IMG/VR virus record: IMGVR_UViG_2874920711_000013
Location: 1 to 15,952 of that record
Source: a virus
Lineage: Duplodnaviria; Heunggongvirae; Uroviricota; Caudoviricetes
Direction: 5' to 3' (one strand)
Length of the DNA stretch: 15,952 nucleotides
In this document: positions 1-15,952 of the stretch, piece after piece
Layout of the letters: the number at the start of each line of letters is the position of its first letter
Numbering within the stretch: the first letter of the stretch is position 1
The notes under the pieces: model-generated
Databases searched by the model: none
What the model saw: the letters and a program-made list of their open reading frames with translations, nothing else
What the model was told of the DNA's origin: nothing
Program-made: the position numbers and the translations under genes

Positions 1-1199
1 TCAGGCCGGCATATACCTCAGCAGACTGATATCCCGCGCGTTTTTCTTCAGCCCCTCCACATTCAGTCCCGCGATGGCCCGGCGGTATACCATCCGGCCG
101 CCACACAGCACGCATTCAAACGGGTCACGACTCAGGAACTGCTTCACCATTTGTGCATAGCACACCTTCGCCACCGGTGCCGGTTTATCCATCCCCAGAG
201 CACGGTACACCTGCGGCAGCTTCTCTCCACACACCCGGTTGGCAAGGAACCCGAAGTACCTCACCATCTTAAAAAACTTCTCCGGGATGTGCTGTTTCAG
301 CCTCGCGACCAGCTCACGCTGTGTCAGCGTTTCCGTCGCCGTTTCTCCCGTTTTGTGGTCCAGGTAACGGAAGCTCAGGCTCGCCCCTCCGTTGTAATGT
401 GCCAGCCGGGAGGCCGCTATCGGCGGCTTCTTCAGATAACGACCCAGGTAGCGCGCCGTATTCCTCCCGCCGGCCGTTTTTTTCGACATGTACACATGCC
501 AGTATTTTCCTCCGGCTTTCAGCACCAGGCTTCTCCTCTGTGATTCCGTCGTGATATGTGACAACGACTCCGGCATCGCCAGCCCTCTGACCACGCTTTC
601 AGAAGCCGTTGCCGCATATTCCACATCCACCGCGAACGCATCGCGTCTTTCAGGAAGCTCAGCTTTTTCCACTGACCATGCTTATTCAGATCTCCACAGG
701 TTACAGACACATGTACATGCGGATGCCAGTTGAGACGACGGCCATACGTGTGGATGGCGCAGAAGATACCGGGTTCCTGCCCCCGTTTCCGGGCGGCATA
801 CAGCAGATTCTCCACCGCCAGACGGCACACGTCATTCAGCAGCCACCGGTTGCTTTCGAACACCGGCCACAGCGTGTCCGGCAGGGTGAAGACCAGGTGT
901 ACCCAGTCGCAGTCAGGAAGACGATTCAGCTGTGTCGCTATCCACAGGTCTGTGGCCTTTTTTCCGCAGGACGGGCAGGCACGGCTGCCGCATGAGTTAG
1001 TGACGTATCTGACGTGGGGGCACTCAGGTTTATCGCAGTTGTATTCCTTCACGCCCAGTATCCGCGTGCCGCAGGCCAGCATTTTGGTGACAGCCTCAAC
1101 CTCGATATCGCGCAGACCGCCCGCATCCAGGAAGGATGTCCAGCACTGGTTGGCCGTGAACAGACGTTTCAGCGGGCGGGGAGTAAAAGCGGACAACAT
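1..1199 (-). pseudogene. IS91-family (HUH-Y2 rolling-circle) transposase, split across two frames (N-part 519..1199, C-part 1..672); C-terminus runs off the window start
   Basis: N-part has a Cys-rich zinc-binding motif (CPHVRYVTNSCGSRACPSCGKK) and the HUH motif (NWHPHVHV). C-part has the YxxxYxxK two-tyrosine motif (ARYLGRYLKKPP). The two frames are reconciled by restoring one base in the C-run at 583-585. Confidence 0.8.
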
Positions 1200-1208
1200 G
1201 AGGACGGA

Positions 1209-1397
1209 TTAACCCCCGGTATCCTGTAGCCGGGTAAGGGCTGCTGTGTCGCCACGGCGCTCCAGGATGGAGGCCGCGACCATCGCAGGTGGTGGGTCCA
1301 TGGGTTTGAGCATCTTCATCCAGTCCCATTCACGTTGTGAGAGCTTCTCAGCACCAACAGAGAGCAGAACGGTATCTATACTTTTGCGGGTCAACAT
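1209..1397 (-). CDS. hypothetical 62-aa protein immediately upstream of the IS91-family transposase
   Basis: ORF from the six-frame track only; no convincing Shine-Dalgarno and no recognisable motif. Confidence 0.25.
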   Translation of the reverse strand: MLTRKSIDTVLLSVGAEKLSQREWDWMKMLKPMDPPPAMVAASILERRGDTAALTRLQDTGG

Positions 1398-1603
1398 AAG
1401 AGGATGAGTCCTTAATAAAACAGGTCCTCAGAGCATACATATTCTGCGGAGCGTGCGGCAACAACAGGACGAACAGGGGCGGTTTTCAATTTGCAGCCGT
1501 CAGGCTGCCGTGGTTCTATCTGATGTAGTTCTTACAGGCTTCAGAGTATAGGGTCAGGAGATATTCTGGAGTATTAATTGGCATTTCCGTGAAAATATCA
1601 CGT

Positions 1604-1665
1604 ATTGATAGCTTTTCATCTTCTGTGATTTGCGGGCAAATCACAGAAGGTAGTTATCTATCAAT
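1604..1665. repeat. 62-bp composite palindrome: ATTGATAG-N8-CTTCTGTGATTTG-CGGG-CAAATCACAGAAG-N8-CTATCAAT
   Basis: Read directly: 13-bp perfect inverted arms (1620-1632 / 1637-1649) around a 4-nt centre, flanked at equal 8-bp spacing by 8-bp inverted arms (1604-1611 / 1658-1665). A second inverted TTGATA/TATCAA pair lies at 1801-1806 / 1828-1833. Confidence 0.8.
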
Positions 1666-1834
1666 AATATATTTATTAATAGGCAATCGCCTGAAAATAC
1701 TCTACTTGAATAATTTCTGGTACTTACCTATTAATAAGTAGTTCATTGATTGGTTTTCACCCAAAATTATTTGGGCCAAATATTTATAGATGTTTTCCGA
1801 TTGATAATAACAAAAAAACGGCAATATCTATCAA

Positions 1835-1872
1835 CAAAAAAAAGCAGATCCCGGTCAATCAGGATCTGCTTT
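1835..1872 (-). terminator. intrinsic terminator downstream of the P4-type integrase (bidirectional hairpin)
   Basis: 8-bp stem GCAGATCC / GGATCTGC (1844-1851 / 1862-1869) with a 10-nt loop. The minus-strand transcript has a U8 tract after the stem (plus-strand A-run 1835-1842). Confidence 0.6.
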
Positions 1873-1903
1873 TCCAGTTTTAATGATTTACGCTATTTCT
1901 GAT

Positions 1904-3165
1904 TCAGGCTGCCTTATGCTGCCGCGCATAAATGTACGGCGCGACATACCCCTCGCGGCACACATCCAGATAATCCGACCACCACTGCATCATGGCCTTT
2001 CTGGCCTCCAGATGCTCTGCTTTATGCACATATGCCGCCCGCACGCTGTTGCGCTCCTGGTGGCTCATTTGCCGCTCCACCGTATCGCGTGACCACAGGT
2101 CCGACTCCACCAGGGCGCTACAGGCCATTGCCCTGAGTCCATGCCCACAGACTTCAGTTTTCGTATCATACCCATCAGACGCAGCGCCCGGTTGGTGGTG
2201 TTTTCACTCATTGGCTTGTACGGATTATGGTCGCCGGGAAACACCAGATCCAGATGGCCGGAAAGCTCCTGTATCTGTTTCAGAATGGCAATCGCCTGGC
2301 GGGAGAGCGGCACGATATGCGGGGTACGCATTTTTGCGCCACGCCCCGAAAACCGTACTTTATCAATTGCCTCGCGGGTGGCGGGAATGGTCCAGATTTT
2401 GTGCCTGAAATCGATCTCGCTCCAGCGGGCGAAACGCAGCTCGCTGGAACGGATAAACAGATGCAGCGTCAGCCCCACCGCCAGCCGGGTTAACTCCCGG
2501 CCCTGCCGGTAGTCGCCAATGCGGCCAAGCAGTTCAGGCAATCGCTCCAGCGGTAAAGCGGGATAGTGATTCTTTACGGGTGAGGCGACAACGCCATCCA
2601 GATGCTGCGCCGGATTGCTTGCGGTCAGTCCCTGCTGAACGGCATAGCGCATGATGTTGCTGAGTTGCTGCCGGGTTCGGGACGCGACTTCCAGGAAGCC
2701 TTTATCCTCAATAATCAGCAGTAAAGCCGTGAAATCCTGCGTTTTAAGCGTGGCAACGGGCAGATGACCAATCGCCGGGAAGATATGGTTTTCCATACTG
2801 GCGAGAATACGGGCGGCATACTCAGCCGACCATTTTTTGTTGGTTTTGTGCCAGGCCAGCGCCACCGCCTTAAAGCACTTTTCAGGGGAGCAGGCTGCTT
2901 TCTCTGCCATGCGCTGCTGCGCCGGGTTGATATTCTGCGCCAGTAACTTACGGATACCGTCGCGCTGCTGCCTGGCTTCTGCCAGTGAGGCCAGCGGATA
3001 TGCGCCAAGACTGACTCTGGATTCTTTTCCGTTGAAACGATATTTGCGATACCAGATGCGTGAACCGCTCGGATTGACGAGCAGATACAGACCGTGAGAG
3101 CCGGAGAGTTTTACCGGACGGGAAGAGGGTTTTAACTTGCGGATTTTAGAATCGTTTAAAGACAT
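1904..3165 (-). pseudogene. P4-type tyrosine integrase (DUF4102 N-terminus plus phage-integrase catalytic domain), interrupted by one frameshift
   Basis: N-terminus MSLNDSKIRKLKP...GLYLLVNPSGSRIWYRKYRF is typical of P4-like integrases; ATG at 3165 with GGAG upstream. The catalytic C-terminus (HGLRAMACSALVES...SHQERNSVRAAYVHKAEHLEARK) is in another frame (1904..2182). The frames are reconciled by one extra base in the C-run at 2171-2173. The gene sits beside the 3' side of tRNA-Asn in the same orientation. Confidence 0.85.
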
Positions 3166-3326
3166 TTGAGGGTCACTCCAGAATCGAACCAAACTGCCCC
3201 CAGATCTGACCACCAAATTATCCCGATGCGGAGAGAAAACTAGATACGCACCGGGAAGGATTTTCACGCTAACTTACTGAATCGTAAACAAATAGAAACG
3301 TACAGATAAGCATGAAAACTTGAATT

Positions 3327-3402
3327 TGGCTCCTCTGACTGGACTCGAACCAGTGACATACGGATTAACAGTCCGCCGTTCTACCGACTGAACTACAGAG
3401 GA
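3327..3402 (-). tRNA. asnT: tRNA-Asn (anticodon GUU)
   Basis: 76-nt sequence on the minus strand, TCCTCTGTAGTTCAGTCGGTAGAACGGCGGACTGTTAATCCGTATGTCACTGGTTCGAGTCCAGTCAGAGGAGCCA, matching the E. coli Asn tRNA with encoded CCA. The asnT name comes from its position next to mtfA. Confidence 0.95.
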
Positions 3403-3420
3403 ATCGTGTGAACGGGGCGC

Positions 3421-3449
3421 ATATTACTTAGCGGTACCTTGTCTGTCAA
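3421..3449 (-). promoter_or_regulatory. sigma70 promoter for tRNA-Asn with GC-rich discriminator
   Basis: On the minus strand: TTGACA (3444-3449), 17-bp spacer, TAATAT (3421-3426), then GCGCCCC before the mature 5' end at 3402. AT-rich UP-like sequence upstream. Confidence 0.55.
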
Positions 3450-3502
3450 CACTAAATTTCATAAGTCATTTCAATTGGTTAATTAATCTGCAAAGTTGTT
3501 AA

Positions 3503-4300
3503 TTAATGAACATTCGTCGCCGAAAACGAGTCTGTATCATTAGCGTGATGCAGTCTCTGCAAAGGATCTTGTTGATAAAATTGGCAGAAACGTTGCCACA
3601 ATGAAGGGAAACGAGGAGCAAAAAGTTCTGGGGCGCTAAAGAAATATTCAGAAAGTACGGCAAAACATTCAGCAGGATCGCTGGCAGCATAAGCATCAAT
3701 GCTCGCCGCATTCTCGCCAACTAATTCGATTTCTTCCTGAATGTTGTTCATTGCAGCATGAAGATCGTGTTCCCAGCCAGCAACCTCACGCAACGGAATA
3801 AAGGGAACTCCGCTGGCGCGATCGCCGTTACGGGTGTCCAGCTTATGAGCGACTTCATGAATAATCAGGTTAAAACCAGAAGCATCAAAAGAATCTTGTA
3901 TATCCAACCAGTTCAAAACGATAGGCCCTTGCTGCCAGCTCTGACCTGACTGAACAATACGTTGGTTATGCACCAGACCGATATCGTCTTCCCATTCATC
4001 ATCGACCACAAATGGCGCAGGATAAATTAAGACTTCATGAAAACCATCCAGCCATTCCAGTCCTAACTCCAGAACGGGTAGGCAAAATAGAAGTGCTATC
4101 CGGCAGCTTCTTAATGAATCCAGTTCAAAGCTCTGTAAAGGAACAAGCCGCTTTTGCTGTAAAAAACGTTCGGCAAGAGTGACTAATTTGCTTTGTTCCT
4201 GTTCCGTCAGACACGTTAAAAGGGGGAACGATAGTGCTTCCTGCCAGGGAAGGGCAGTTTGATGTGCTGATTCTTGTACTTTCCAGGGCCACTTAATCAT
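3503..4300 (-). CDS. mtfA: MtfA (Mlc titration factor A; zinc-dependent peptidase family), 265 aa
   Basis: Protein begins [23 protein letters not shown] and contains the HEVAH zinc-binding motif. It lies between the Asn and Ser tRNA genes, as mtfA does in E. coli K-12. Confidence 0.9.
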
Positions 4301-4393
4301 CGTTTTGCTCGCAAACTCGTCACTTGAACAAAATTGCACGGACAGGGACTGTTAAAATGCCAAATTTCTTGGCATCATGGCAACCATCTGAAC

Positions 4394-4483
4394 GGAGAGA
4401 TGCCGGAGCGGCTGAACGGACCGGTCTCGAAAACCGGAGTGGGGGCAACTCCACCGGGGGTTCAAATCCCCCTCTCTCCGCCA
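4394..4483 (+). tRNA. serU: tRNA-Ser (anticodon CGA), class II tRNA with long variable arm
   Basis: 90-nt sequence GGAGAGATGCCGGAGCGGCTGAACGGACCGGTCTCGAAAACCGG...GGTTCAAATCCCCCTCTCTCCGCCA; anticodon loop CU-CGA-AA. Confidence 0.95.
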
Positions 4484-4528
4484 AAATTCAATCACTTATA
4501 CATCATTAAGTCAGTGACAAAAATCACA

Positions 4529-4559
4529 CTTGGAATTACTTGGAATATTTTCTTGGAAT
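4529..4559. repeat. three direct CTTGGAAT repeats between the serU 3' end and the end of int (candidate integrase arm-type sites)
   Basis: CTTGGAAT at 4529-4536, 4539-4546 and 4552-4559. The last two are a 13-bp tandem repeat inside the final int codons (ENIPRKYSK). Confidence 0.45.
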
Positions 4560-5561
4560 ATTTTCAGGTAACGGGACATCAAGTGTCGGTGAAACTTTAA
4601 CCTTCCTGTCATAGATTAGCACTTGCCCCTCGGTTTTGTGACCAGAGAAAAGTTGCTTATCCCGACTGCTTCCTTCATAGTCTGAAATTCCTTTCGCCTT
4701 CAGATCATGAAAGGTGAAGTCGGTTAAAATACCTGAAATTTTGCCTGCGCGATTTCTTGCTTCTACCCACATTTCGTTAAAGCCTTTGTACATATATCGG
4801 TTGCCGTATTGATTGCTGATTACATAGGCGGATGTTGGTAACTGTTTTGCTTTTTCGATCGCCGCCTGTAATCGTGGACTCCATGCTTTTATCTGTTTTT
4901 TTCCTGTTTTCCCTTGCTGGATAAAGATCCCGTCGTTTCCAATCTGCTCCCATTTCAGCGATAACACATCGGAAACCCTCGCTGCACACAGATAGGCAAT
5001 TTCCATTGCGATAAAAACAGGAAGAGGTGCAACGCTTAATACTGCCTGGTATTCTTTGTCGGTTACATATCGTTCGCGGTTTTTGGCCTTGAATTTACTT
5101 ACACCTGCACATGGGTTAGCCTTCACGTACCCTCGCTCATACCCCCAACTGTAAACGCGGGACATACTGCTTTTTTCATGGTTGGCTTGCGTTTTACTCT
5201 GTTCCCCTCTCTTGTCCATGTATCGACGGATGTGTTCTGGTTTTATGGAATCTGCCGGCACCTTACCGAATACGGCAAGCAACTTTTTTTGATGTTGCAG
5301 ATAATCTTTTTGTGTTCTTGGACTGAGGTCACTGTAATAGGCGCTGGCGAGGAATTTTTCCCACAAGCGACCGAATGTCATTGCACGATCGCGATTATTT
5401 ACAGTTTCCTCATACTTTTTCCATAAAGCAGCTAAACCATCCTTGATGGCGGTTAGTGTTACAGATTCTCTGGATGTTGGTTTCCATACATAACTATATT
5501 TATTTGGGTATACATTTGGAGGTAATTTTTCGTGTTCAGGATTTTTCCTTCGTCTTCCCAT
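4536..5561 (-). CDS. int: prophage integrase, lambda-Int family tyrosine recombinase, 341 aa
   Basis: N-terminus MGRRRKNPEHEKLPPNVY resembles the lambda Int arm-binding domain. Catalytic region carries R (AARVSDV), K (QGKTGKK), H (FTFHDLK), H (SGHKTEG) and Y (VLIYDRK). The gene converges on the serU 3' end and is coupled to the upstream xis (TGATG overlap at 5559-5563). Confidence 0.9.
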   Translation of the reverse strand: MGRRRKNPEHEKLPPNVYPNKYSYVWKPTSRESVTLTAIKDGLAALWKKYEETVNNRDRAMTFGRLWEKFLASAYYSDLSPRTQKDYLQHQKKLLAVFGKVPADSIKPEHIRRYMDKRGEQSKTQANHEKSSMSRVYSWGYERGYVKANPCAGVSKFKAKNRERYVTDKEYQAVLSVAPLPVFIAMEIAYLCAARVSDVLSLKWEQIGNDGIFIQQGKTGKKQIKAWSPRLQAAIEKAKQLPTSAYVISNQYGNRYMYKGFNEMWVEARNRAGKISGILTDFTFHDLKAKGISDYEGSSRDKQLFSGHKTEGQVLIYDRKVKVSPTLDVPLPENIPRKYSK

Positions 5562-5730
5562 CAGATCGCACCAAAATTCGGCTCTACCTCGCGTGGTGGT
5601 AAAGTTTTATTGCAGGTAAATAGATCCCGGCTGACAATCGGTTTGCCACTACGATTGGTATAGAACGGAAGCCCGTTTTCCATTAACCATTTTCGCTGGT
5701 GGCTTGCATATTTGCAGCCCGTTAATATTA
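5561..5730 (-). pseudogene. xis: excisionase (Xis-like winged-helix protein) interrupted by an IS insertion; this is the 3' part, and the first 11 codons lie at 6647..6680
   Basis: Removing the IS (5731..6644) and one TA copy restores a 67-aa ORF MSSLFLTEDELLILTGCKYASHQRKWLMENGLPFYTNRSGKPIVSRDLF..., which fits the excisionase pattern (LTG...W...NG.PF....GKP.V.R). Its stop overlaps the int start. Confidence 0.6.
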
Positions 5731-6644
5731 GGCTGTGTCCCTTAATCATCTGAGCTATAGTAACTGTCTGTTTACACAACATATTGAACTATGGCTCGCT
5801 ACGACCTTCCCGATGAGGCATGGACCATCATCAAGCCCCTGTTACCTCCTGAACCCGCCACACCACGGGCCGGACGCCCATGGGCTGAGCACCGTAAAAT
5901 CATCAATGGCATGTTCTGGGTGTTATGTTCCGGTGCACCATGGCGCGATTTACCCGAACGATATGGGTCATGGAAAACTGTTTATAACCGCTTTAACCGA
6001 TGGTCAAAGTCAGGCGTGATTAATATTATTTTCAACAGGTTGCTTTCGCTACTTGATGCAAACGGCTTTATTGACTGGTCTGCCACCGCGCTGGATGGCA
6101 GTAATATCCGGGCGCTGAAATGTGCCGCCGGTGCTCAAAAAAACATCCCGATATCGACGGAGATAATGGGCTGGGTCGCTCTCGCGGCGGTTTTGGCACC
6201 AAAATCCATCTGGCAACAGACGGAAGTGGCCTCCCGTTAAATATCGTGCTAAGCCCGGACAAGCTCATGAAAGCCAGTTCGCGCAACGACTTCTGGACGG
6301 GATTGGCGTTCAGCGTCAGAACGGCAGCATGAAACGCCGTGGACATGCGGTACTGGCTGATAAAGCGTATTCAGGGCGCGCATTGCGCAACGAGCTGAAA
6401 AATAACGGTATAAAGGCAGTAATCCCCGAAAGTCAAATGAGAAAATGGCATCGGATGGACGTGCACAGCTTGATCGTGATGCGTACTGCAATCGTAATGT
6501 CGTTGAACGGTGCTTTGGGCGGCTGAAAGAATATCGCCGCATCGCCACGCGTTACGACAAAACGGCGAGAAATTACCTGGCGATGGTGAAACTGGGCTGC
6601 ATCCGACTCTTTTATCAACGCTTACGTAATTAAGGGACACAGCC
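5731..6644 (+). mobile_element. IS5-family (IS427-like group) insertion sequence, 914 bp, inserted in xis
   Basis: Perfect 16-bp terminal inverted repeats GGCTGTGTCCCTTAAT (5731-5746; reverse complement at 6629-6644) flanked by a TA direct duplication (5729-5730 and 6645-6646). The transposase begins MARYDLPDEAWTIIKPLLPP. Confidence 0.8.
5791..6633 (+). pseudogene. IS5-family transposase (OrfA/OrfB), reading frame broken at three homopolymer sites
   Basis: Conserved transposase segments lie in four successive frames (5791-6240, 6120-6332, 6329-6526, 6445-6633), including ADKAYSGRALRNELKNNGIKAVIPESQ and ERCFGRLKEYRRIATRYDKTARNYLAMV. Shifts are at the A7 run 6137-6143, CCCGG at 6254-6258 and AAA at 6435-6437; each is -1. 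The A7 site could be a natural programmed frameshift. Confidence 0.75.
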
Positions 6645-6738: not shown

Positions 6739-8010
6739 TTAAAAATCAGCCTGACTCGGGATCAGTTTTTGCCAGATAGCTGAAACGTATTTTGCCTGGT
6801 AACGAGCGTCATCAAGTGCATTATGGCGCTCACCTTCGAATGGAATAGCCGTTCTGGCATCGAAGTCTATGGCTTTCCCCAGCTCAACGATTGTGCGTAC
6901 ATCGCGATCGTTGTAGTAACGCCACGGGCAGGGGATCCCCTGCCGTTCGTATGAACGGCGCAAAATCGTGTTGTCGAAGTTGGCTCCATTTCCCCAGACC
7001 TGAACAAAAAATTCACCGGAGTTTTCGTCGATAAATTCCCGCAATTGTAACAGTGCATCATCTAACGGGATTTCATCGGTCATAATGGCAGATTGCGCTT
7101 CGCGTGATTGCTTAAGCCACCATTTAATGGTGTCCCGATCAATGACTCCGCCAGCAGTTTCCAGATCGATAGTCTTACTAAATTCGGGTCCCATATCTCC
7201 GGTTTGCGGATCGAAAAATATTGCACCTATTGAGATGATCGGGGCATCAGGATTTTTTCCCATGGTTTCAAGGTCGATCATTAGATGGTCACACGTCCTG
7301 CTGGTGGATGTGATTTCGTGATGACCATTCACCGTAATTAAGGGATCTGCCGTCTCGCCAGTTTTACTATCGCTGGCGTGGTCCTGAGCGCTGCCAGCAT
7401 TCTCCTTGTGTGGATGTTCAGCGCCTTCCATTTCCTCCGGATCATTTTCCTGAACTTCAACCTGATTCTCTTCATCGAATGTTTTCTGGTATGTTGCGTC
7501 GTCCATCACCGCGCCACAATCAGGGTAGTTGCCGCCACCGCTCTGACCGCAGGCGGTGCAGACTTTTTCCGGTTCCTGTTGCGCTACTGGTTCGGATTGT
7601 TTCGTTTCTGGCTCGTTTTGTAACGCATTTGGGCTGTTTTGTTCCGCTTTTTGGTCGTTCCGTTCCGATTCATGCTGGTTCTGGTTCACAGAATCGCGAG
7701 TCTGGATCCCCTTGACCCATTTCGGATCATTAGGGTCGCTAATCCCCTCAACAAATTCACCACGCGATACAGCAAGTAACTTATCGGCGTCAGGCTGGCT
7801 GATATTGGCTGCCTGCATAATTTTGTTTACTTCGTCAGCGGTGACTTTTACTTGGTTAGCGGAACTCACCTGCGACTGAGCATCCAGCGACTGCGCGTTC
7901 TGGCAATGTTCAGTTGTATCCGGTTCCATTGTTTCAGTTGTTGCCTGTTCACCTGCCATTGCGTCAGATGGTTGTGGTTTTTCTTCTTCTGTTTCACGCT
8001 CAGTAACCAC
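6739..8010 (-). CDS. prophage exonuclease: DnaQ-like DEDDh 3'-5' exonuclease domain after a long acidic low-complexity region; true 5' end uncertain
   Basis: C-terminal domain has the three DEDDh motifs: [21 protein letters not shown] and [14 protein letters not shown]. The listed start is a GTG with a poor ribosome-binding site. Coding-like sequence continues upstream in another frame (8045..8219) across an A5 run at 8038-8042. Confidence 0.75.
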
Positions 8011-8163
8011 CTCGCGGTTAATTTCTTCCAGGATATCTTTTTCCGGCGTATGCCGGGCAGCTGTGAGAGTTTCCTTGCTGGGTTCTCGTGATCAGTTTCT
8101 GTCAAATAGGCGTTGATATACCCCTGAAGGCGTCCCGGGTAGTGATAAAATTCAGGGGTGCGC

Positions 8164-9177
8164 TTAGGATAAGTGCAAAAATAGCGGCGCGGGAATAGTC
8201 CAGAATACCCGGGTTGCACGAAGTGCTGCGGACCATTCTTTGAACGGACTTTCTTTTTTCAGGACTACTTCTTTTGCGCGACGATAAACGCTGCCCGGAA
8301 TTTCATAAATATTAAAATCCATCGGAAGTGTGGCTGCTGCAATCTCCACATCCAGTGTGTCGAGGGTGTGTACTAAATTCGGATTGCGATCGGTTTTGTT
8401 CCCACCGCCAGCATTAGCACCGGAAGCCGTGCGGGTGATGCGTGAAACACGATTTCCTTTCATCCACTCTTTTGTCAGCAGACCCCGATCAGTGTAGTCA
8501 GCGTCCAGGTATGCTTCGAAAAAAGCAGTTATTAGTCCCAGGTCTGAATTACCAGGATTAGGGAAAACTTTGTCAGTGTCACGAACCAGTTTGTGGAGGT
8601 CGCGAATCTCCAGCGAGTCGAGCAGACTGGTTTTATGCGAAATAGCCAGGGCAGTAACAGCCGGTAGTTCTTCAGCCCGTGCAATGTGTAATGCCTGGAG
8701 TTCGTCGCGTGAAACGTGCGTTACTGGTTTTTCGCTGCCGTGTTGAGCAAGCCAACGAATGGGCAGTTCCTGACCGGAGACAGGTAGAAGCATGCTCTCC
8801 TCAATCTCAGTCATGTCTTCGCCGTTGATGTTGGTATTATCAGTGCTGGCTGATTTGTCCTGAACAGAGGGGGAAGGGCCGATAAATGTCATTGTGATGC
8901 CATCTTTCCCGCCTTTTTCATAGCGGTTGCAGAATTCAGTATCAAACACGCCTTCTGGCGGAAGGTCGTCAACAACGGGCAAATTGACGCGGACGGGTTT
9001 TTTAAAGTCGTCTTCATCATAATCGTTGTCATCCATTGCGGTAATGCAGCGGGAGATTGCAACAGATAATTTTTTTGCTGTAGTCCAGTAAAAACCACCT
9101 TTAATTCCTAGGCGTTTTCTTACTTTGACATTTTTTGCTTCGCAATATAGTGCAAATTCTTCTTTATCAGTGCTCAT
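8164..9177 (-). CDS. prophage protein of unknown function, 337 aa; possibly the N-terminal part of a larger exonuclease protein
   Basis: Long ORF with ATG at 9177. It occupies the ydfE-like position after ydfD in a Qin-type gene order. It is in the same frame as the exonuclease ORF. Confidence 0.6.
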
Positions 9178-9270: not shown

Positions 9271-9462
9271 TTAAAATCCTGCCGGGATTTCGTTATTATC
9301 CTGGTGAATAACTTTATCGACCGGATAACAGTTGCCTGGAATTTTCTGTTCGGTTGCTGCTGCCATACATTCCTGCATTGTTCTGTGAACACTGACTGCA
9401 ATATCAACTGGCTCTCCGGAAACAAGAAAAACCGTCAGAATAAGTGCAAATACTGGATTCAT
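9271..9462 (-). CDS. ydfD: YdfD-like small membrane/lysis protein, 63 aa
   Basis: MNPVFALILTVFLVSGEP... with a hydrophobic N-terminal segment. Its start overlaps the dicB stop (TCAT at 9459-9462). Length and position match Qin-prophage ydfD. Confidence 0.7.
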   Translation of the reverse strand: MNPVFALILTVFLVSGEPVDIAVSVHRTMQECMAAATEQKIPGNCYPVDKVIHQDNNEIPAGF

Positions 9463-9647
9463 TGTGCACATCCTTTTGGCATCAGACGTAAACGGGCCAG
9501 CATTGAAACAATGCATACTTTATTTAATAACTCCCGTTCGTGTTTTCTTTTGTTAATGGCCTCTTCAGTAAATACAGGATTACTGATAGTGACACCAATT
9601 TCAAAACAACCTTCAGACGTATTAACGTTTGGTAATAACGTTTTCAT
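9459..9647 (-). CDS. dicB: DicB cell-division inhibitor, 62 aa
   Basis: MKTLLPNVNTSEGCFEIGVTISNPVFTEEAINKRKHERELLNKVCIVSMLARLRLMPKGCAQ. GAGGG ribosome-binding site 8 nt upstream of the ATG at 9647. It lies directly downstream of DicF. Confidence 0.85.
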   Translation of the reverse strand: MKTLLPNVNTSEGCFEIGVTISNPVFTEEAINKRKHERELLNKVCIVSMLARLRLMPKGCAQ

Positions 9648-9820
9648 TATCGCGCCCTCAACAATGAGTTTTGTGATGCGGTGCCTGGTGCCTCCAGGTG
9701 ACGTTAACCAGTTAACAATTAACGCCGGATACAGAGAATCCACCCATAACACTGTTTTTGGTTTTAACTGTTCCGCGTGCGCTTAGCCGCATTCACCGCA
9801 TCACAAAATTCACTTTAAAA

Positions 9821-9873
9821 AGGGCGGCAGAGCAGTCACGGAGTAAAACTGATACCGCCAAACGTCACCAGAA
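9821..9873 (-). ncRNA. dicF: DicF small regulatory RNA (Hfq-dependent antisense RNA, ftsZ inhibitor)
   Basis: Minus-strand sequence TTTCTGGTGACGTTTGGCGGTATCAGTTTTACTCCGTGACTGCTCTGCCGCCC followed by a T-run (9816-9820). The terminator hairpin is GGCGG...CCGCC. Identification is from my recollection of the DicF sequence. Confidence 0.8.
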
Positions 9874-10215
9874 AATTGATAACAGAGGGCGTTGCAGCGG
9901 GGTTGTCACTTAAGCGTATGGTCAACCTGACAACCCGGTGTCCTCAACGGGGGAAGGAATAACCCCGCCATACTTACCGCCGCGCCATTTCGCGGATTGC
10001 CACAACCGGAAGCGCACGGTCGACGAAAATTTAACGACAGGCTATCTATGAACCAGCTACCTCGCCGTGCGCTTTCGCGTTATGGTCTGACTTTTCAGGG
10101 AAATATCCTTTCAGTAAACTGTCAGTGCCGGATGCTCACCCGTGTCCGGCGCACGCACTCCACCTCACCCGTGGAGAACTCCTTAATTACTAACCTTAGC
10201 TTTGTTGATTAGCTA

Positions 10216-10434
10216 CTAACGCGGGTATGTAATCATTCTGGCAATGCTTAATGCCGCTGCTTTTTCCAGATTGGTGATATCCTGCTCCAGAGCGGACAGA
10301 TTTTCAGCCTGCTTAGCCCTGGCTTCATTAGCCCATTTCAGATCCTGCGCTGCATTAATTTTCTGGCGCATCCACTCATAAAGTTCATCATCGGTATAGT
10401 CTGGCGCGATGATGACGGGTTCTCGTTTCTGCAC
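10216..10434 (-). CDS. ydfC: YdfC-like prophage protein, 72 aa (GTG start)
   Basis: GTG start at 10434 preceded by GAGGA 6 nt upstream. Size and position match Qin-prophage ydfC. Confidence 0.7.
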   Translation of the reverse strand: MQKREPVIIAPDYTDDELYEWMRQKINAAQDLKWANEARAKQAENLSALEQDITNLEKAAALSIARMITYPR

Positions 10435-10463
10435 GCTGATTCCTCGCGGTGCTGTTTCGCTTA

Positions 10464-10592
10464 TCAGCCGTTAGATTTTGCCGAACTGGAAAGCGCCTGT
10501 TTAAATTCGCTGAAGCTGAGAGCTTCTTCGCCTTCGGCAAGGCCTTCGAAGTATTCTTCGTAAGCCTTTTCCATGATTGTGTCGAAATCCAT
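10464..10592 (-). CDS. ydfB: YdfB-like small acidic protein, 42 aa (shorter than the 60-aa cutoff of the ORF track)
   Basis: Found by hand: ATG at 10592 with AGGTGG 7 nt upstream, encoding MDFDTIMEKAYEEYFEGLAEGEEALSFSEFKQALSSSAKSNG. It is tightly packed after ydfA (stop 10594-10596). Confidence 0.65.
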   Translation of the reverse strand: MDFDTIMEKAYEEYFEGLAEGEEALSFSEFKQALSSSAKSNG

Positions 10593-10593
10593 A

Positions 10594-10749
10594 TCACCCA
10601 CCTGAATTTCTTTCCAGCCAGCGACGCGCTCCAGATTCGGTTTTAAACGTTTTGCTTTTGGTATACGTCATTGCGGTGAAGGTGCCGTCCTGGTTGGGAA
10701 ACACGCCGTACACCAGAGATTCGTTGTTGCCAAGATCGATAGTATCCAT
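10594..10749 (-). CDS. ydfA: YdfA-like small protein, 51 aa
   Basis: ATG at 10749 with GAGG 7 nt upstream, encoding MDTIDLGNNESLVYGVFPNQDGTFTAMTYTKSKTFKTESGARRWLERNSGG. The longer track ORF (to 10872) reads into the IS66 end and is not native. Confidence 0.7.
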   Translation of the reverse strand: MDTIDLGNNESLVYGVFPNQDGTFTAMTYTKSKTFKTESGARRWLERNSGG

Positions 10750-10893
10750 GCTGACCTCATTTCCCCTTAACGCCGGGGTAGCGGAACAAAAACCTGCTGC
10801 ATAGTTATTAAGTAAGCGCCCCATCAGCGACGTCTTGTGAAAATTGTCCTGTCTGGCAACAATCGCGCCCATCTATATTGATGGACACGAACG

Positions 10894-11568
10894 ATGAATT
10901 CCCAGACAACAAAAGATATTCCCTGCTTCCGTTCTTATTTGCCTGATGCCCTGCGTTTAAGATTTGAAGATAAACTGACCATCCGGGCCATCGCTCAGCG
11001 TCTGGGTCTCAGTCATTCCACAATACATACGCTTTTTCAGCGATTTCTTGCATCCGGTATCGCATGGCCATTGCCCGATTCAGTTTCATTCGCTCAACTT
11101 GACGCCATCCTTTATGCCAACAGAAAGAAGGAATTAACAGAGCCTCAAATCAGAGAAGGCTCATGGCGAAAAGAACGGCGAACCAGCTATAGCCGTGAAT
11201 TTAAGGCCCGTCTGGCTAAGCAGGCGTTACAGCCTGGGGCTGTTGTTGCCCGGATCGCCAGAGAACACGATATCAATGATAACCTGCTGTTTAAATGGAA
11301 AAGCCAGTACGAGGACGGCTTACTGAGCGATGATGACATACAGGAATGCATGCCTGTCCCGGTGGCACTGACTGATACGCCGGAGCCGACCAGACCAGTT
11401 ACAAATCCCTTCTGGCGTAACAAGCATGATGAGCGCCCTGAGGGGGCTCCCGGAAACGTCCCACGGTGCGAGCTGCATCTTAAATCAGGTGTGGTAAAAC
11501 TGTTTGACCCTCTCACTCCGGAACTGTTACGGGCGCTAATCCGCGAAATGAAAGGGGGTATCCGATGA
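10894..11568 (+). CDS. IS66-family accessory protein OrfA (helix-turn-helix), 224 aa
   Basis: C-terminal half (RRTSYSREFKARLAKQALQPGAVVARIAREHDINDNLLFKWKSQYEDG) matches the IS66/IS3-type OrfA pattern. ATGA overlap with the next gene at 11565-11568. Confidence 0.7.
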   Translation: MNSQTTKDIPCFRSYLPDALRLRFEDKLTIRAIAQRLGLSHSTIHTLFQRFLASGIAWPLPDSVSFAQLDAILYANRKKELTEPQIREGSWRKERRTSYSREFKARLAKQALQPGAVVARIAREHDINDNLLFKWKSQYEDGLLSDDDIQECMPVPVALTDTPEPTRPVTNPFWRNKHDERPEGAPGNVPRCELHLKSGVVKLFDPLTPELLRALIREMKGGIR

Positions 11569-11912
11569 TAACGCTGCCGACCGGTACCAGAATCTGGATC
11601 ATCGCTGGCATCACAGATATGCGTTGTGGCTTCAATGGCCTGGCTTCGAAGGTGCAGAACACGCTGAAAGATGACCCGTTCTCCGGGCATATCTTCGTCT
11701 TCCGGGGCCGCAGTGGCAAAATGGTGAAAATACTGTGGGCCGATCGTGACGGGTTATGCCTGTTCGCCAAACGCCTGGAACGGGGCCGCTTCGTCTGGCC
11801 GGTGACCCGGGAAGGGAAAGTGCACCTGACGCCAGCTCAGTTATCCATGCTACTGGAGGGGATCGCGTGGCAACATCCCAAACGGACAGAACGGCCTGGC
11901 ATCCGGATATAA
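11565..11912 (+). CDS. IS66-family TnpB (Orf2), 115 aa
   Basis: MITLPTGTRIWIIAGITDMRCGFNGLASKVQ...KMVKILWADRDGLCLFAKRLERGRFVWP is the characteristic IS66 Orf2 sequence. Confidence 0.85.
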   Translation: MITLPTGTRIWIIAGITDMRCGFNGLASKVQNTLKDDPFSGHIFVFRGRSGKMVKILWADRDGLCLFAKRLERGRFVWPVTREGKVHLTPAQLSMLLEGIAWQHPKRTERPGIRI

Positions 11913-11931
11913 CCCGTGATAAAACAAGGGA

Positions 11932-13487
11932 ATGAACAATGAACTCCCCGATGATATTGAGCTGCTTAAAGCCATGTTGCGTAAGCAACAGAGTCGGCTT
12001 CGACAGTATGCCTGTCAGGTCGCGGGCTATGAGCAGGAAATTGAACGGCTGAAAGCGCAACTCGACAGGTTGCGTCGTATGTTGTTCGGCCAGAGTTCAG
12101 AGAAAAAGCGTCATAAGCTTGAAAATCAGATCCGACAGGCAGAAAAACGACTGTCGGAACTGGAAAACCGGCTGAACACAGCCAGAAATCTTCTGGAAGA
12201 TGCATCGTCAGTCACAGATTCACCTGACACCAGTCCCCCGTCAGAAAACCCGATCGCCAGTAAGCCTGAATCCCCGGGAGACACATCGCCTTCTGCCTGC
12301 TGAAACCAGTTGCCCGGCCTGTGGAGGTGTTCTGAAAGAAATGGGGAAACAATCTCAGAGCAACTGGATATCATTAATACCGCCTTTAAAGTTATCGAAA
12401 CCATACGTCCCAAACTGGCCTGTAGCCGGTGTGATGTCATCGTTCAGGCACCACTTCCCCTAAACCGATCGAACGCGGTTATGCCAGTGCAGGGTTACTT
12501 GCACGGATCCTGGTCAGCAAATATATGGAACATATCCCTTTATATCGCCAGTCAGAAATATACGCGCGACAGGGCGTGGAGCTGAGCCGTAATACCATGG
12601 TGCGCTGGGTATCAGAAATGGCAGACAAACTCCGTCCTCTGTATATAGCGCTGAATGACTATGTTCTGGAGGCAGGAAAGGTGCACGCAGATGACACTCC
12701 GGTGAAAGTACTGGCCCCGGGGAACGGAAAGACGAAAACGGGTCGTCTGTGGGTATACGTCAGGGATGATCGTAATGCGGGTTCATCCCTGCCGGCAGCC
12801 GTCTGGTTCGCGTATTCGGCAGATCGCAAAGGAGAACATCCGCAGCTCCACCTGGCAAAGTATCAGGGCGTACTGCAGGCTGATGCCTATGCAGGTTATA
12901 ACGTACTGTACGAAACGGGCCGGGTGAAGGAAGCCGGGTGCCTGGCCCACGCCCGCCGAAAAATCCATGACGAGGATGTGCGCCGTCCGACAGAAATGAC
13001 TCAGGAAGCGCTCAGACGGATAGCAGAGTTATACGACATAGAAGCGGAGATACGTGGCAGTCCGGCAGAGGAACGGCTTGCAGTCAGAAAAGCCAGAAGC
13101 GTCCAGTTGATGCAGTCGTTGTACGACTGGATACAGTTGCAGAGGAAAACGCTGTCGAAATATGCGGAGATGGCGAAGGCGTTCGACTATATCCTGAATC
13201 ACTGGAATGCGCTGAACGAGTTCTGTCGTGACGGCTGGGTGGAAATAGACAACAACATCGGTGAAAACGCGTTACGATCGGTGGCGGTTGGAAGAAAAAA
13301 TTATCTCTTTTTCGGCTCAGACAAGGGAGGAGAAAGTGCGGCGATCATCTACAGTCTGCTGGTCACCTGCAAACAGAACGAAGTGGAGCCGGAGGACTGG
13401 TTGCGCGAAGTGATCGAGAAGCTCAATGACTGGCCGTCGAACCAAGTGCATGAACTGCTGCCCTGGAACTTCTCGTCTGTAAAATAA
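11932..13487 (+). pseudogene. IS66-family transposase TnpC, broken by four single-base frameshifts
   Basis: N-terminal coiled coil (11932-12303), CxxC segment LPAETSCPACGG (frame of 12200-12463), SEQLDII...[16 protein letters not shown] (frame of 12310-12585) and the DDE domain LYRQSEIY...HADDTPV...[10 protein letters not shown] (12525-13487) lie in different frames. Shift sites are GGG 12276-12278, CC/TT near 12289-12292, GGGG 12343-12346 and CCCC 12457-12460. Confidence 0.85.
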
Positions 13488-13761: not shown

Positions 13762-14181
13762 TTAAGAGGCTTTTTGTTTTTTCTTTCGTGCTAACTCTTC
13801 GTAAATTGCATTGTACTTCTGTTTTTTCTCTTCAAGAGTTTTTAAAAGTTCATCTGTCTCACTGTCAGGGAGCTCGTCCAGAAGGTCAATGATGATTTTT
13901 TGTCTTGGATTTAACTCCTGATAGAAACGTACCTGTCCACTTTCTTCTGTATCCTCTCCCAAAAGATAGGTTGGTGTTGTTCCTATTAGTGTTGCTAATT
14001 CCCTTAATTTCTCCCGGCGAGGAATTGTTTCGCCATTAAACCATTTGCTAACCGCTTTTGGTGTTAATTTCATTCGACGGGCAATTTCTGCCTGCCTTCC
14101 ATGTTGTTCATAACCAGCGTTTTCACAGGCTAGCGCAAGCCTACTGGCGAACTCTTTACGCGCTTTATCTTCATGAACCAT
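13762..14181 (-). CDS. dicA: prophage repressor, DicA/RacR-like (N-terminal XRE-type helix-turn-helix, no peptidase domain), 139 aa
   Basis: Helix-turn-helix region FASRLALACENAGYEQHGRQAEIARRMKLTPKAVSKWFNGETIP with a charged C-terminal tail. It is divergent from the Cro-like gene and, once IS66 is removed, lies directly upstream of ydfA-ydfB-ydfC-dicF-dicB. The dicA name is by synteny only. Confidence 0.75.
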   Translation of the reverse strand: MVHEDKARKEFASRLALACENAGYEQHGRQAEIARRMKLTPKAVSKWFNGETIPRREKLRELATLIGTTPTYLLGEDTEESGQVRFYQELNPRQKIIIDLLDELPDSETDELLKTLEEKKQKYNAIYEELARKKKQKAS

Positions 14182-14260
14182 AAGTTCAATGATATTCGCT
14201 CTTGAATGTACTGTCAGTTCTGTTATAGCATGTACTCAAAGTTCACATTGTGAGGGTGAT
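14182..14260. promoter_or_regulatory. divergent immunity control region (back-to-back pRM-like and pR-like promoters with operators)
   Basis: Leftward: -35 CTGACA (14212-14217), 17-bp spacer, -10 TATCAT (14189-14194), 7 nt before the repressor ATG, implying a leaderless transcript. Rightward: -35 TTGAAT (14202-14207), -10 near 14224-14229, GAGGGTG ribosome-binding site at 14253-14259. ATGTACT heptamers at 14206-14212 and 14230-14236. Confidence 0.5.
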
Positions 14261-14515
14261 ATGAACCAGAAAACACTTGAAGATGTAATCAAAACTGTTC
14301 GCGTTGCTGTTGTGGCCGACGTTTGTGGTGTCAGCCAAAGAGCAATCTATAAATGGATGGATAACGGAAAATTGCCTCGCACAGAATATACCGGCGAAAC
14401 AAATTACGCTGAAAAAATCGCTCTTGCATCAAACGGATTATTTTCTGCCGATGCAATTTTAACTATTGGCAGGAATAAAACTACTACGAAAAAGCTGATG
14501 GGAGTTGATTCATGA
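14261..14515 (+). CDS. Cro-like / YdaS-like helix-turn-helix protein, 84 aa
   Basis: ATG at 14261 with ribosome-binding site; helix-turn-helix segment VADVCGVSQRAIYKWMDNGKLP. Divergent from the repressor and translationally coupled to the next gene (ATGA at 14512-14515). Confidence 0.7.
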   Translation: MNQKTLEDVIKTVRVAVVADVCGVSQRAIYKWMDNGKLPRTEYTGETNYAEKIALASNGLFSADAILTIGRNKTTTKKLMGVDS

Positions 14516-14838
14516 AAATCAAGCATGAACACATCCGCATGGCGATGAATGCCTGGGCGCATCCGGACGGCGAAAAAGTACCGGCTGCGAAAATTACCAA
14601 AGCGTATTTCGAGCTGGGAATGACGTTCCCGGAACTGTATGACGACAGCCATCCGGAAGCCCTGGCTCGCAATACTCAGAAAATTTTCCGCTGGGTGGAG
14701 AAAGACACCCCTGATGCGGTTAAAAAAATTCAGGCGTTGTTACCAGCTATCGAAAAAGCAATGCCACCTCTGCTGGTGGCCCGAATGCGCAGTCATAGCT
14801 CAGCCTATTTTCGGGAACTAAATAGCTGCGCGGAATAG
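14512..14838 (+). CDS. YdaT-like protein, 108 aa
   Basis: N-terminus MKIKHEHI matches what I recall of Rac-prophage YdaT. The stop codon TAG (14836-14838) lies 2 bp before the IS630 left end. Confidence 0.6.
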   Translation: MKIKHEHIRMAMNAWAHPDGEKVPAAKITKAYFELGMTFPELYDDSHPEALARNTQKIFRWVEKDTPDAVKKIQALLPAIEKAMPPLLVARMRSHSSAYFRELNSCAE

Positions 14839-14840
14839 TA

Positions 14841-15952
14841 GATCACTTTGAGGGAACTTAGCCCGGATTGTGCGATCTGATCAATCGCCAAATCAAAACA
14901 AATCACCAACCGGACTGAGCAATGCCGATCATAGCACCAATTTCCCGTGACGAACGACGCCTGATGCAGAAAGCCATCCATAAAACACACGATAAAAATT
15001 ATGCCCGCAGACTGACTGCCATGCTGATGCTGCACCGGGCGACCGTGTCAGCGACGTTGCCAGAACGCTCTGCTGCGCCCGTTCCTCTGTTGGACGCTGG
15101 ATTAACTGGTTCACGCAGTCGGGTGTTGAGGGACTGAAATCATTACCTGCCGGGCGTGCCCGTCGCTGGCCGTTTGAGCATATCTGCACACTGTTACGTG
15201 AGCTGGTAAAACATTCTCCCGGCGACTTTGGCTACCAGCGTTCACGCTGGAGTACAGAACTGCTGGCAATAAAAATCAATGAGATAACCGGTTGCCAGTT
15301 AAATGCCGGAACCGTTCGCCGCTGGTTGCCGTCTGCGGGGATTGTGTGGCGAAGGGCTGCGCCAACTCTGCGTATCCGTGACCCGTATAAAGATGAAAAG
15401 ATGGCAGCAATCCATAAAGCACTGGACGAATGCAGCGCAGAGCATCCGGTCTTTTATGAAGATGAAGTGGATATCCATCTTCATCCCAAAATCGGTGCGG
15501 ACTGGCAACTGCGCGGACAGCAAAAACGGGTGGTCACGCCGGGACAGAATGAAAAATATTATCTGGCCGGAGCGCTGCACAGCGGGACAGGTAAAGTCAG
15601 CTATGTGGGCGGCAACAGCAAAAGTTCGGCGCTGTTCATCAGCCTGCTGAAGCGGCTTAAAGCGACATACCGTCGGGCGAAAACCATCACGCTGATCGTG
15701 GACAACTACATTATCCACAAAAGCCGGGAAACACAGAGCTGGCTGAAGGAGAACCCGAAGTTCAGGGTCATTTATCAGCCGGTTTACTCGCCATGGGTGA
15801 ATCATGTTGAACGGCTATGGCAGGCACTTCACGACACAATAACGCGTAATCATCAGTGCCGCTCAATGTGGCAACTGTTGAAAAAAGTTCGCCATTTTAT
15901 GGAAACCGTCAGCCCATTCCCCGGAGGCAAACATGGACTGGCAAAAGTGTAG
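14841..15952 (+). mobile_element. IS630 (Tc1/mariner-like insertion sequence), partial; right end beyond the window
   Basis: The transposase matches my recollection of IS630 (MPIIAPISRDERRLMQKAIHKTHDKNYARRLTAML...HGLAKV). The left boundary is estimated (within about 5 bp) from the TA dinucleotide at 14839-14840. Confidence 0.8.
14922..15952 (+). pseudogene. IS630 transposase with a single-base frameshift
   Basis: N-terminal 40 aa are in one frame and the rest (..ELVKHSPGDFGYQRSRWSTELL...MPSAGIVWRRAAP...) in the -1 frame. Restoring one G in the GGG run at 15037-15039 gives a continuous reading frame. Confidence 0.85.

Follow-up and report, generated by a model that had tools for sequence, protein, structure and literature searches.

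The window analysed here, that is the whole stretch of 15,952 nucleotides, comes from GenBank record CP026824.1, of a lineage in which the proteins bear the name Shigella dysenteriae. Towards its left end ARAGORN called two tRNA genes, asnT and serU, with a gap of 991 bp in which the core gene mtfA is the sole gene, the product of mtfA being matched by the NCBIfam MtfA equivalog (E=6e-162, 537 bits). The spacing of about 1 kb given in the original prediction, with only mtfA between the two tRNA genes, is thus confirmed. A P4-type integrase gene lies 3' of tRNA-Asn and a lambda-type integrase gene converges on the 3' end of tRNA-Ser, as had been stated; both family assignments are right, and BLASTP finds no similarity between the two proteins. 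The features of this part of the window are:

1904..3165, minus strand: P4-type tyrosine integrase of the asnT island, 420 aa after restoration of a base missing at about 2170
3322..3342, no strand assigned: asnT att identity block GAATTTGGCTCCTCTGACTGG, made up of the final 16 nt of the tRNA and the 5 nt that follow it, the junction between island and chromosome
3327..3402, minus strand: asnT, tRNA-Asn(GTT), called by ARAGORN and identical to K-12 asnT
3503..4300 (or 4339), minus strand: mtfA, core gene with a Peptidase_M90 domain, about 99% identical to K-12
4394..4483, plus strand: serU, tRNA-Ser(CGA), called by ARAGORN
4536..5561, minus strand: tyrosine integrase of lambda type, intact with 341 aa, belonging to the serU prophage

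Each of the two tRNA genes is a genuine site of integration. The asnT-mtfA-serU locus of K-12, which had been proposed as the empty reference, is indeed empty, and it ceases to be homologous to the window precisely where the two tRNA genes end on their 3' side, for asnT at the att block; in Escherichia coli strain 190, which has the same two integrases, both sites are full and both elements complete, and all four states of asnT/serU occupancy are present among 5,426 complete E. coli genomes.

The repaired asnT integrase has the Pfam domains Arm-DNA-bind_3 (N-terminal, E=7e-23), Phage_int_M (central, E=4e-25) and Phage_integrase (C-terminal and catalytic, E=6e-17) and aligns with P4 Int across 414 aa at 50% identity (E=7e-150). 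The integrases of P4 and of the Yersinia high-pathogenicity island (HPI) share this domain architecture, likewise target a tRNA 3' end and have their core about 150 bp upstream of int; the asnT att block precedes the integrase start by about 157 bp, and the annotated P4 core precedes int by 152 bp. The target of P4 is leuX, and the asnT island is of neither the P4 nor the HPI type.

As written in the window, the frame of the asnT integrase is broken by a one-base deletion at about 2170, a point that the original prediction had overlooked. One base is missing there from a run of four C on the plus strand (a G run on the coding strand), ahead of the HGLR motif and the catalytic Tyr, and the orthologous gene of E. 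coli strains 190 and 1-62, which has an internal stop, is listed there as a pseudogene; both observations would suit a true pseudogene inactivated by this frameshift. However, restoring a single homopolymer base yields a complete protein of 420 aa that is matched exactly on 23 contigs, including the chromosome of the sister assembly CP027027.1, and comparison of the source with two sister assemblies revealed at least 15 single-base deletions, all of them in G or C runs and with the run always shorter in the source. In the sister assemblies the genes for the exonuclease, the IS66, IS630 and IS91 transposases, yeeO and cbl are unbroken; in the source the same type of error splits every one of them. 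Under-called C runs account for the IS91 frameshift at 582 (the transposase is intact in the sister assemblies, with 399 aa) and for the breaks at 6253 and 6423 in the DUF4096/DDE_Tnp_1 insertion sequence, under-called G runs at 8079, 8154 and 8210 account for the split of the exonuclease, and the split of tnpC in the IS66 element goes back to under-calls at 12342 and 12456. Because the sister assemblies encode an intact protein and the deletions are confined to G and C runs, the frameshift in the asnT integrase is almost certainly an assembly error, and the pseudogene reading, which is now improbable, was dropped after this comparison. Other findings from the window that rest on "pseudogenes" should be discounted, since their frameshifts are homopolymer errors.

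Beyond the integrase gene, what is left of the asnT island in the window corresponds to the earlier description, namely AT-rich DNA and an IS91-family element, as judged from domains and DNA identity:

1..1517, minus strand: IS91-family insertion sequence with Zn_Tnp_IS91 and Y2_Tnp domains, extending about 169 bp past the left edge of the window
1518..1903, no strand assigned: AT-rich DNA past the integrase gene, left over from the asnT island, GC about 0.38-0.44

The IS91 element is 94-99% identical at the DNA level to annotated IS91 copies, and the matches end at 1516-1520. Other E. coli genomes have asnT islands with which the AT-rich remnant is collinear, at 96-98%, from position 1517; in strain 190 the asnT island measures 10.7 kb, and the 3' end of asnT recurs at its far end as a 21-nt repeat with one mismatch. 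In the source genome, IS91 is followed directly by yeeN, and yeeJ-yeeL-shiA-amn and the remainder of the asnT island are absent, a layout common to the two sister assemblies. Of the two fates that had been suggested for the cargo of the island, loss is the one that stands and a position further left is not, because IS91 abuts the amn-yeeN spacer.

The element at serU is a prophage, of which the following features were recognised:

4422..4483, plus strand: serU att identity block of 62 nt, which starts at the anticodon stem and runs through CCA, supplied by the phage on comparison with attR of strain 190
4529..4559, plus strand: three direct CTTGGAAT repeats (at 4529, 4539 and 4552), candidate arm-type (P'-arm) sites overlapping the 3' end of the integrase gene
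5561..5782, minus strand: DUF4224 excisionase-like gene (Pfam DUF4224; PHROG excisionase families, E=1e-15), its stop overlapping the integrase start
5791..6633, plus strand: insertion sequence (transposase of DUF4096 plus DDE_Tnp_1) that separates xis from the exonuclease gene; the transposase is intact, with 281 aa, in one sister assembly (L019)
6739..9177, minus strand: prophage exonuclease with a RecE-like N-terminal part and an Rv2179c-like 3'-5' exonuclease (Pfam and PHROG matches), apparently split in the window
9271..10872, minus strand: early-left genes DUF1482, dicB, ydfC-like, ydfB-like and DUF1391, from the gene list of the source locus (L017)
10894..13487, plus strand: IS66-family element (tnpA, tnpB and tnpC; HTH_Tnp_1, TnpB_IS66 and DDE_Tnp_IS66 domains) within the prophage
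13762..14838, no strand assigned: immunity region (HTH_3 and PHROG repressor matches)
13762-14181, minus strand: cI-like repressor of the immunity region
14261-14515, plus strand: cro-like gene of the immunity region
14512-14838, plus strand: ydaT-like gene, cut short, with only the N-terminal half of YdaT_toxin
14922..15952, plus strand: IS630-family transposase gene (DDE_3 domain; intact, with 343 aa, in sister assemblies), marking the truncation of the prophage

Residues 1-313 of the serU integrase align with residues 1-338 of lambda Int, including the N-terminal arm-binding part (PDB 1z1b, E=8e-13), an end-to-end alignment at 22-23% identity that upholds its designation as lambda-type; identity to the integrases of ST64B and ZF40 is 59% and 50% respectively, and 7,251 blocks of the collection contain precisely this protein. 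The catalytic residues R195, K218, H285, H308 and Y317 are conserved and the second Arg is replaced by Lys (HDLK); Lys also occupies the position of lambda Arg311 in ST64B and ZF40, compared with Arg in KS5 and in lambda itself. Owing to this Lys, we infer the activity of the window copy from its relatives, and on that footing it is probably active: the lambdoid prophage Sp14/CP-933U of E. coli O157:H7, about 43.7 kb in length and situated between yodB and tRNA-Ser(CGA) (PMC8190617), has an int-xis module that is about 97% identical in DNA to that of the window and has been shown to excise and circularise in vivo (PMC2669165). Sp14 also has the same ExoVIII-type recombination gene as the window prophage (PMC2669165), but it is of full length and still circularises, whereas the window prophage amounts to an early region of about 10 kb. 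In the temperate Salmonella phage ST64B and the Pectobacterium phage ZF40, the xis gene lies upstream as it does in the window module, although their hosts and the sequences of their tRNA segments and arm repeats differ from those of the serU element.

The octamer CTTGGAAT occurs in three copies in the whole window, all of them at 4529-4559, and in strain 190 in only five copies over 78.6 kb, of which attL has three and the P arm at attR the other two. These repeats are candidate arm-type binding sites of the serU integrase, a role suggested by their distribution, and in the lambda record an Int-binding site is likewise annotated across the 3' end of int. The exonuclease is intact (813 aa) in the sister assemblies and in other E. 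coli, and the early-left genes have the same order in strain 190. Similarity to other prophages stops at about 14820, and to the right of IS630 the source genome continues with ycgX, bluR, IS4, bluF, ariR and pdeG. The serU prophage of the source is a stump, an early region of about 10 kb with three IS elements inside it and ended by IS630.

In the window, the serU att block includes G4441 and C4452, which form a compensatory pair in the variable arm of the tRNA; K-12 has A/T at these positions. The serU prophage of strain 190, of about 43 kb, has at its two ends a 62-nt repeat of the 3' part of serU; its attR is exactly the same 62-nt segment with the K-12 A/T alleles, and the tRNA at attL has G/C. 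The G/C alleles were found in 13 of 14 other occupied loci examined, in addition to the window itself. The single exception (L007) is occupied yet has the A/T alleles, so that allele and occupancy are strongly, though not absolutely, linked. Across the 5,426 complete E. coli genomes the G/C tRNA was found in 1,179 and the serU integrase in 1,096, so the phage-type tRNA-Ser(CGA) is present in about 22% of them, and phage ST64B has a homologous 62-nt tRNA-Ser segment beside int.

Distal copies of the tRNA 3' ends, which the original prediction had proposed as a means of delimiting the elements, exist for both elements in strain 190, but none was found in the source within reach. Within the window the 3' ends of asnT and serU are not repeated elsewhere, in the flanks of the source the asn matches are the complete asnW, asnU and asnV genes only, and the 9 kb past the window contain no further fragment of serU. 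Both elements in the source are stumps without a surviving distal repeat in the approximately 8 kb searched on the left and 9 kb on the right; the late half of the prophage and attR may lie elsewhere in CP026824.1, beyond these flanks.

An important consideration is whether two elements 1 kb apart could constitute a single composite island, cooperating or co-mobilised and including mtfA, given that 490 of the complete E. coli genomes have both integrases. The serU integrase was present in 1,096 of the 5,426 genomes and a P4-like integrase at an asn tRNA in 2,443, the latter count taking in any asn tRNA gene and not asnT alone. Joint occurrence (9%) is the product of the single frequencies, 490 genomes against 493 expected under independence, a test that is rough because the genomes are phylogenetically related. 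Furthermore, the integrases are unrelated in sequence, the cores differ (a 21-nt 3' end as against a 62-nt block from the anticodon stem), and each element is found alone and with many different partners: genomes with the same serU integrase carry the HPI, an RHS island, other islands or nothing at asnT, and the cargo is variable at both sites. A composite island is accordingly very unlikely. The records ON470580 and ON470583 were considered as free phage with the same integrase and rejected; both are predicted prophages whose sequences take in mtfA and tRNAs of the host, so that neither attests a free phage. That the asnT element is itself the HPI, the classic occupant of asnT, which uses the same site and the same integrase family and is common there among genomes with the same serU integrase (L006, L008, L011 and L013), can be dismissed almost outright, for the integrase is just 70% identical to that of the HPI in protein and about 73% in DNA, the DNA past it matches a different island of about 10.7 kb with an RHS gene, and in the source no ybt/irp/fyuA yersiniabactin genes follow it, IS91 and then yeeN standing there instead.

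The reading preferred here, with a probability of roughly 0.9, is that two unrelated integrative elements entered neighbouring tRNA genes independently of one another and were later truncated to stumps by IS elements. Each would have come with a tyrosine integrase of its own and recombined at a separate attachment site. The P4-type integrase would have recombined a core of about 21 nt, consisting of the last 16 nt of asnT and 5 nt downstream, placing the island after asnT, and the lambda-type integrase, acting with Xis and arm-type sites, would have recombined in the anticodon stem-loop of serU; the exact crossover positions are inferred. The phage brought 62 nt that take the place of the 3' part of the tRNA, and as a result the serU gene stays whole. 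Subsequently IS91 would have replaced the distal asnT island along with yeeJ-amn, and IS630 would have joined the early region of the prophage to the distant chromosomal ycgX-bluR locus, the IS elements being the probable cause of the deletions. What remains is two integrase-bearing stumps without distal att sites, presumably unable to excise as units, and the proximity of the sites would reflect only that two tRNA genes happen to lie 1 kb apart.

The description of the locus as a double hotspot is sound in that both sites are used, but it had been published before (PMC7545054, PMC8190617), and joint occupancy is what chance would predict. In the uropathogenic strains 536 and CFT073, PAI-serU lies beside PAI-asnT (HPI) at a distance of about 1.6 kb, the same two tRNA genes being occupied, each by its own island (PMC7545054). 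The cargo differs, comprising the TcpC island and yersiniabactin in those strains and the stumps of a lambdoid prophage and a non-HPI island in the window. Double occupation of asnT and serU is a well-known and common arrangement in E. coli and Shigella and the finding, although correct, is an ordinary one; both genes are textbook sites for islands and prophages, and their joint occupation, being already published, carries little biological weight. There is one aspect that could have gone unrecognised, a functional consequence either of the Lys at the second catalytic Arg in the clade of the serU integrase (the Sp14/CP-933U type, ST64B and ZF40) or of the rewritten tRNA-Ser(CGA), in which an A-U pair of the variable arm becomes G-C. 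This is doubtful, but if true the Lys variant might mean a tuned, weaker recombinase and the 62-nt replacement an altered tRNA. The locus nevertheless offers a clean example in which two att architectures can be compared next to each other, and it illustrates the fossilising effect of IS elements on both integrated elements of a Shigella-type genome.

Two tRNA genes, asnT and serU, lie 991 bp apart in the window and each is accompanied by a tyrosine integrase of its own.

Features of the asnT-serU locus (window coordinates, with strand where assigned)
1-1517, IS91-family element
1518-1903, AT-rich DNA
1904-3165, minus strand, asnT integrase frame, located beyond the asnT 3' end (Arm-DNA-bind_3, Phage_int_M and Phage_integrase domains)
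3327-3402, minus strand, tRNA-Asn(GTT), asnT (ARAGORN)
3503-4300, mtfA
4394-4483, plus strand, tRNA-Ser(CGA), serU (ARAGORN)
4536-5561, minus strand, serU integrase, 341 aa, converging on the serU 3' end
5561-5782, DUF4224 excisionase-like gene overlapping the start of the serU integrase

The coordinates and description in the original prediction agree with the ARAGORN calls, the domain matches and the extents of the IS91-family element and AT-rich DNA, and mtfA is indeed the only gene between the tRNAs. The arrangement is confirmed as an observation, and its interpretation as a double integration hotspot is supported. The labels "P4-type" and "lambda-type" are both justified. With one base restored, the asnT integrase shares 50% identity with Int of satellite phage P4 (414 aa, E=7e-150) and 70% with the integrase encoded by the Yersinia high-pathogenicity island (HPI; sequence from an E. 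coli locus), whereas residues 1-313 of the serU integrase align to residues 1-338 of lambda Int (PDB 1z1b, E=8e-13), including the N-terminal arm-binding part; BLASTP detected no similarity between the two. In the HxxR box of the serU integrase, the residue matching lambda R311, which is the second catalytic Arg in tyrosine recombinases, is Lys (K288; FHDLKAKG). Lys also occupies this position in the integrases of Salmonella phage ST64B, whose record itself notes similarity to the CP-933U integrase, and ZF40 (59% and 50% identical to the serU integrase), but Arg is retained in Burkholderia phage KS5 and lambda; this substitution in the clade is a small point that may deserve note.

As written, the asnT integrase frame is interrupted near 2170, ahead of both the HGLR box and the catalytic Tyr, and further genes in the window look split. 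When the source genome, CP026824.1, was compared with two sister assemblies, CP027027.1 and AFFZ01000066.1, the single-base differences were all of one kind, the source being short of one base in a G/C run (at 582, 1772, 2170, 6253, 6423, 8079, 8154, 8210, 12342, 12456, 13620 and 15036, with more outside the window). Intact in the sisters are the asnT integrase (420 aa), the IS91 transposase (399 aa), the exonuclease (813 aa), the IS630 transposase (343 aa), yeeO and cbl. The repaired integrase sequence has exact copies on 23 contigs, and the truncated product occurs on one contig alone, CP026824.1. Relative to the sisters, CP026824.1 is systematically short of one base in G/C homopolymer runs, and the frameshifts seen in the prophage exonuclease, the asnT integrase and the transposases of the IS91, IS66, IS630 and IS5-like elements are almost certainly false. 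The asnT integrase was thus rejected as a pseudogene, and the "pseudogenes" of the window are not to be believed. Just past the stop codon of the asnT integrase, at 1838-1876, a GC-rich hairpin (GCAGATCC...GGATCTGC) between A and T runs resembles a bidirectional terminator.

K-12 serU-mtfA-asnT aligns collinearly to the window, in the opposite orientation, at ~99% identity, and homology breaks at both tRNA 3' ends: it reaches as far as the serU CCA and, at the other tRNA, extends 5 nt past the asnT 3' end. Direct repeats of the tRNA 3' ends, proposed as element boundaries, were found for both elements in E. coli strain 190 (CP020520), in which both integrases are present (97.7% identity) and both elements are complete. 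Besides the integrase, its asnT island of 10.7 kb carries an RHS gene and a second integrase-like gene; a perfect copy of TTGGCTCCTCTGACTGG closes the island 311 bp short of yeeJ, and with flanking bases the repeat is 21 nt (GAAT[T/C]TGGCTCCTCTGACTGG). The serU element, a lambdoid prophage of ~43 kb, has at its far end, before yodB, a 62-nt copy of the 3' part of serU, from the anticodon stem (CGGTCTCGAAAACCGG...) through CCA.

Both elements are stumps in the source genome, the serU prophage being truncated as well as the asnT island. CP026824.1 (GCA_002949875.1) contains the whole window as an exact match. Exact proteins of this lineage carry the name Shigella dysenteriae, which accounts for the finding that, among 5,426 E. 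coli genomes, all complete, none covered 80% of the window. To the left, IS91 abuts K-12 coordinate 2,056,523 in the amn-yeeN spacer (L015, the locus left of the window, 11650-13335 and 13336 onward), and the rest of the asnT island is therefore absent together with yeeJ, yeeL, shiA and amn (K-12 2,044,630-2,056,522), a core genome loss of ~11.9 kb. Of the two fates suggested for the asnT cargo, loss is borne out and a position further left is not; apart from complete asn tRNA genes, no extra asn 3'-end copies were found in the ~8 kb left of the window. A GAAC tetranucleotide adjoins both IS91 ends (L015). Beyond IS91 the order is yeeN, asnW, yeeO, asnU, cbl, nac, asnV, and a third tRNA/integrase pair is formed by asnV and a second P4-type integrase (L015 19068-20580; L029 13305-14567), which with its flanking AT-rich DNA shares 93% identity with window 1517-3426; this integrase is absent from CP027027.1, where ldtA directly follows asnV.

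To the right, an IS630 copy marks the end of the prophage early region, which comprises the exonuclease, dicB, the repressor, a cro-like gene and a truncated ydaT; beyond the IS630 lie ycgX, bluR, IS4, bluF, IS3, ariR and pdeG (window 14838-15952; L017, the locus right of the window, 11447-20327), a locus that adjoins the e14 prophage in K-12. This junction implies a large rearrangement, and no serU fragment was found within 9 kb right of the window. The truncated layout is common to both sister assemblies and is therefore not a misassembly. Within the early region is an IS66-family element (10894-13487), in which CP027027.1 has a second IS66 copy nested (L018 3618-8975). An IS with a DUF4096 and DDE_Tnp_1 transposase (5791-6633), between xis and the exonuclease gene, is missing from E. 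coli prophages with the same serU integrase.

The joint arrangement is already known and common. PAI-serU (22 kb, TcpC) directly adjoins PAI-asnT (HPI) in UPEC strains 536 and CFT073, according to a review table (PMC7545054). Sakai prophage Sp14, of ~43.7 kb, sits between yodB and tRNA-Ser(cga) (PMC8190617); its integrase is apparently intact and its excised circle was detected at a low level after mitomycin C (PMC2669165). Among the 5,426 E. coli genomes, the serU integrase adjoins serU in 1,096 (20%), a P4-like integrase of the asnT-integrase family adjoins an asn tRNA gene in 2,443 (45%), and both flank mtfA in 490 (9%). Independence would give 493 (1,096 x 2,443 / 5,426), so that the counts give no hint of coupling, in a rough test that is uncorrected for phylogeny and in which the asn count spans any asn tRNA gene. 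Contents at asnT vary among genomes with identical serU integrase (HPI, RHS island, other islands or nothing), and in one E. coli draft genome (L010 15205-21018) the DNA past asnT has secretin and Zot-like genes, suggestive of a filamentous-phage-like element there or close by.

The identity block at asnT spans the 3'-terminal 16 nt of the tRNA and 5 nt downstream, and precedes the integrase start by ~157 bp; in P4, the annotated 20-bp core precedes int by 152 bp. At serU, all three copies of the octamer CTTGGAAT in the window fall within 4529-4559, overlapping the int 3' end; 78.6 kb of strain 190 contains five, three of them at attL and the other two in the attR P arm. The arm-type sites of lambda have the same 2+3 pattern, and the lambda record likewise annotates an Int-binding site over the int 3' end; from their placement these repeats are candidate arm-type sites of the serU integrase.

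Two bases of the serU variable arm differ from K-12, which has A and T where the window has G4441 and C4452, a compensatory change from an A-U to a G-C pair. Strain 190 has G/C in its complete tRNA (attL) and A/T in the partial copy (attR), so that the phage provides the 3' 62 nt of tRNA-Ser and the crossover must fall within the first 19 nt of this block, the anticodon stem-loop. In ST64B a homologous 62-nt tRNA-Ser segment begins at exactly the same tRNA position, ~115 nt from the int stop codon. Besides the window, 14 occupied loci were readable: 13 have the G/C alleles, like the window, and one (L007, a metagenome scaffold) has A/T. In all, 1,179 of the 5,426 genomes have the G/C tRNA-Ser, with 1,096 having the serU-adjacent integrase. 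The G-C version of the tRNA-Ser(CGA) variable arm arrives with the prophage, and integration that rewrites this arm by a compensatory pair is a small point, but one that may deserve note.
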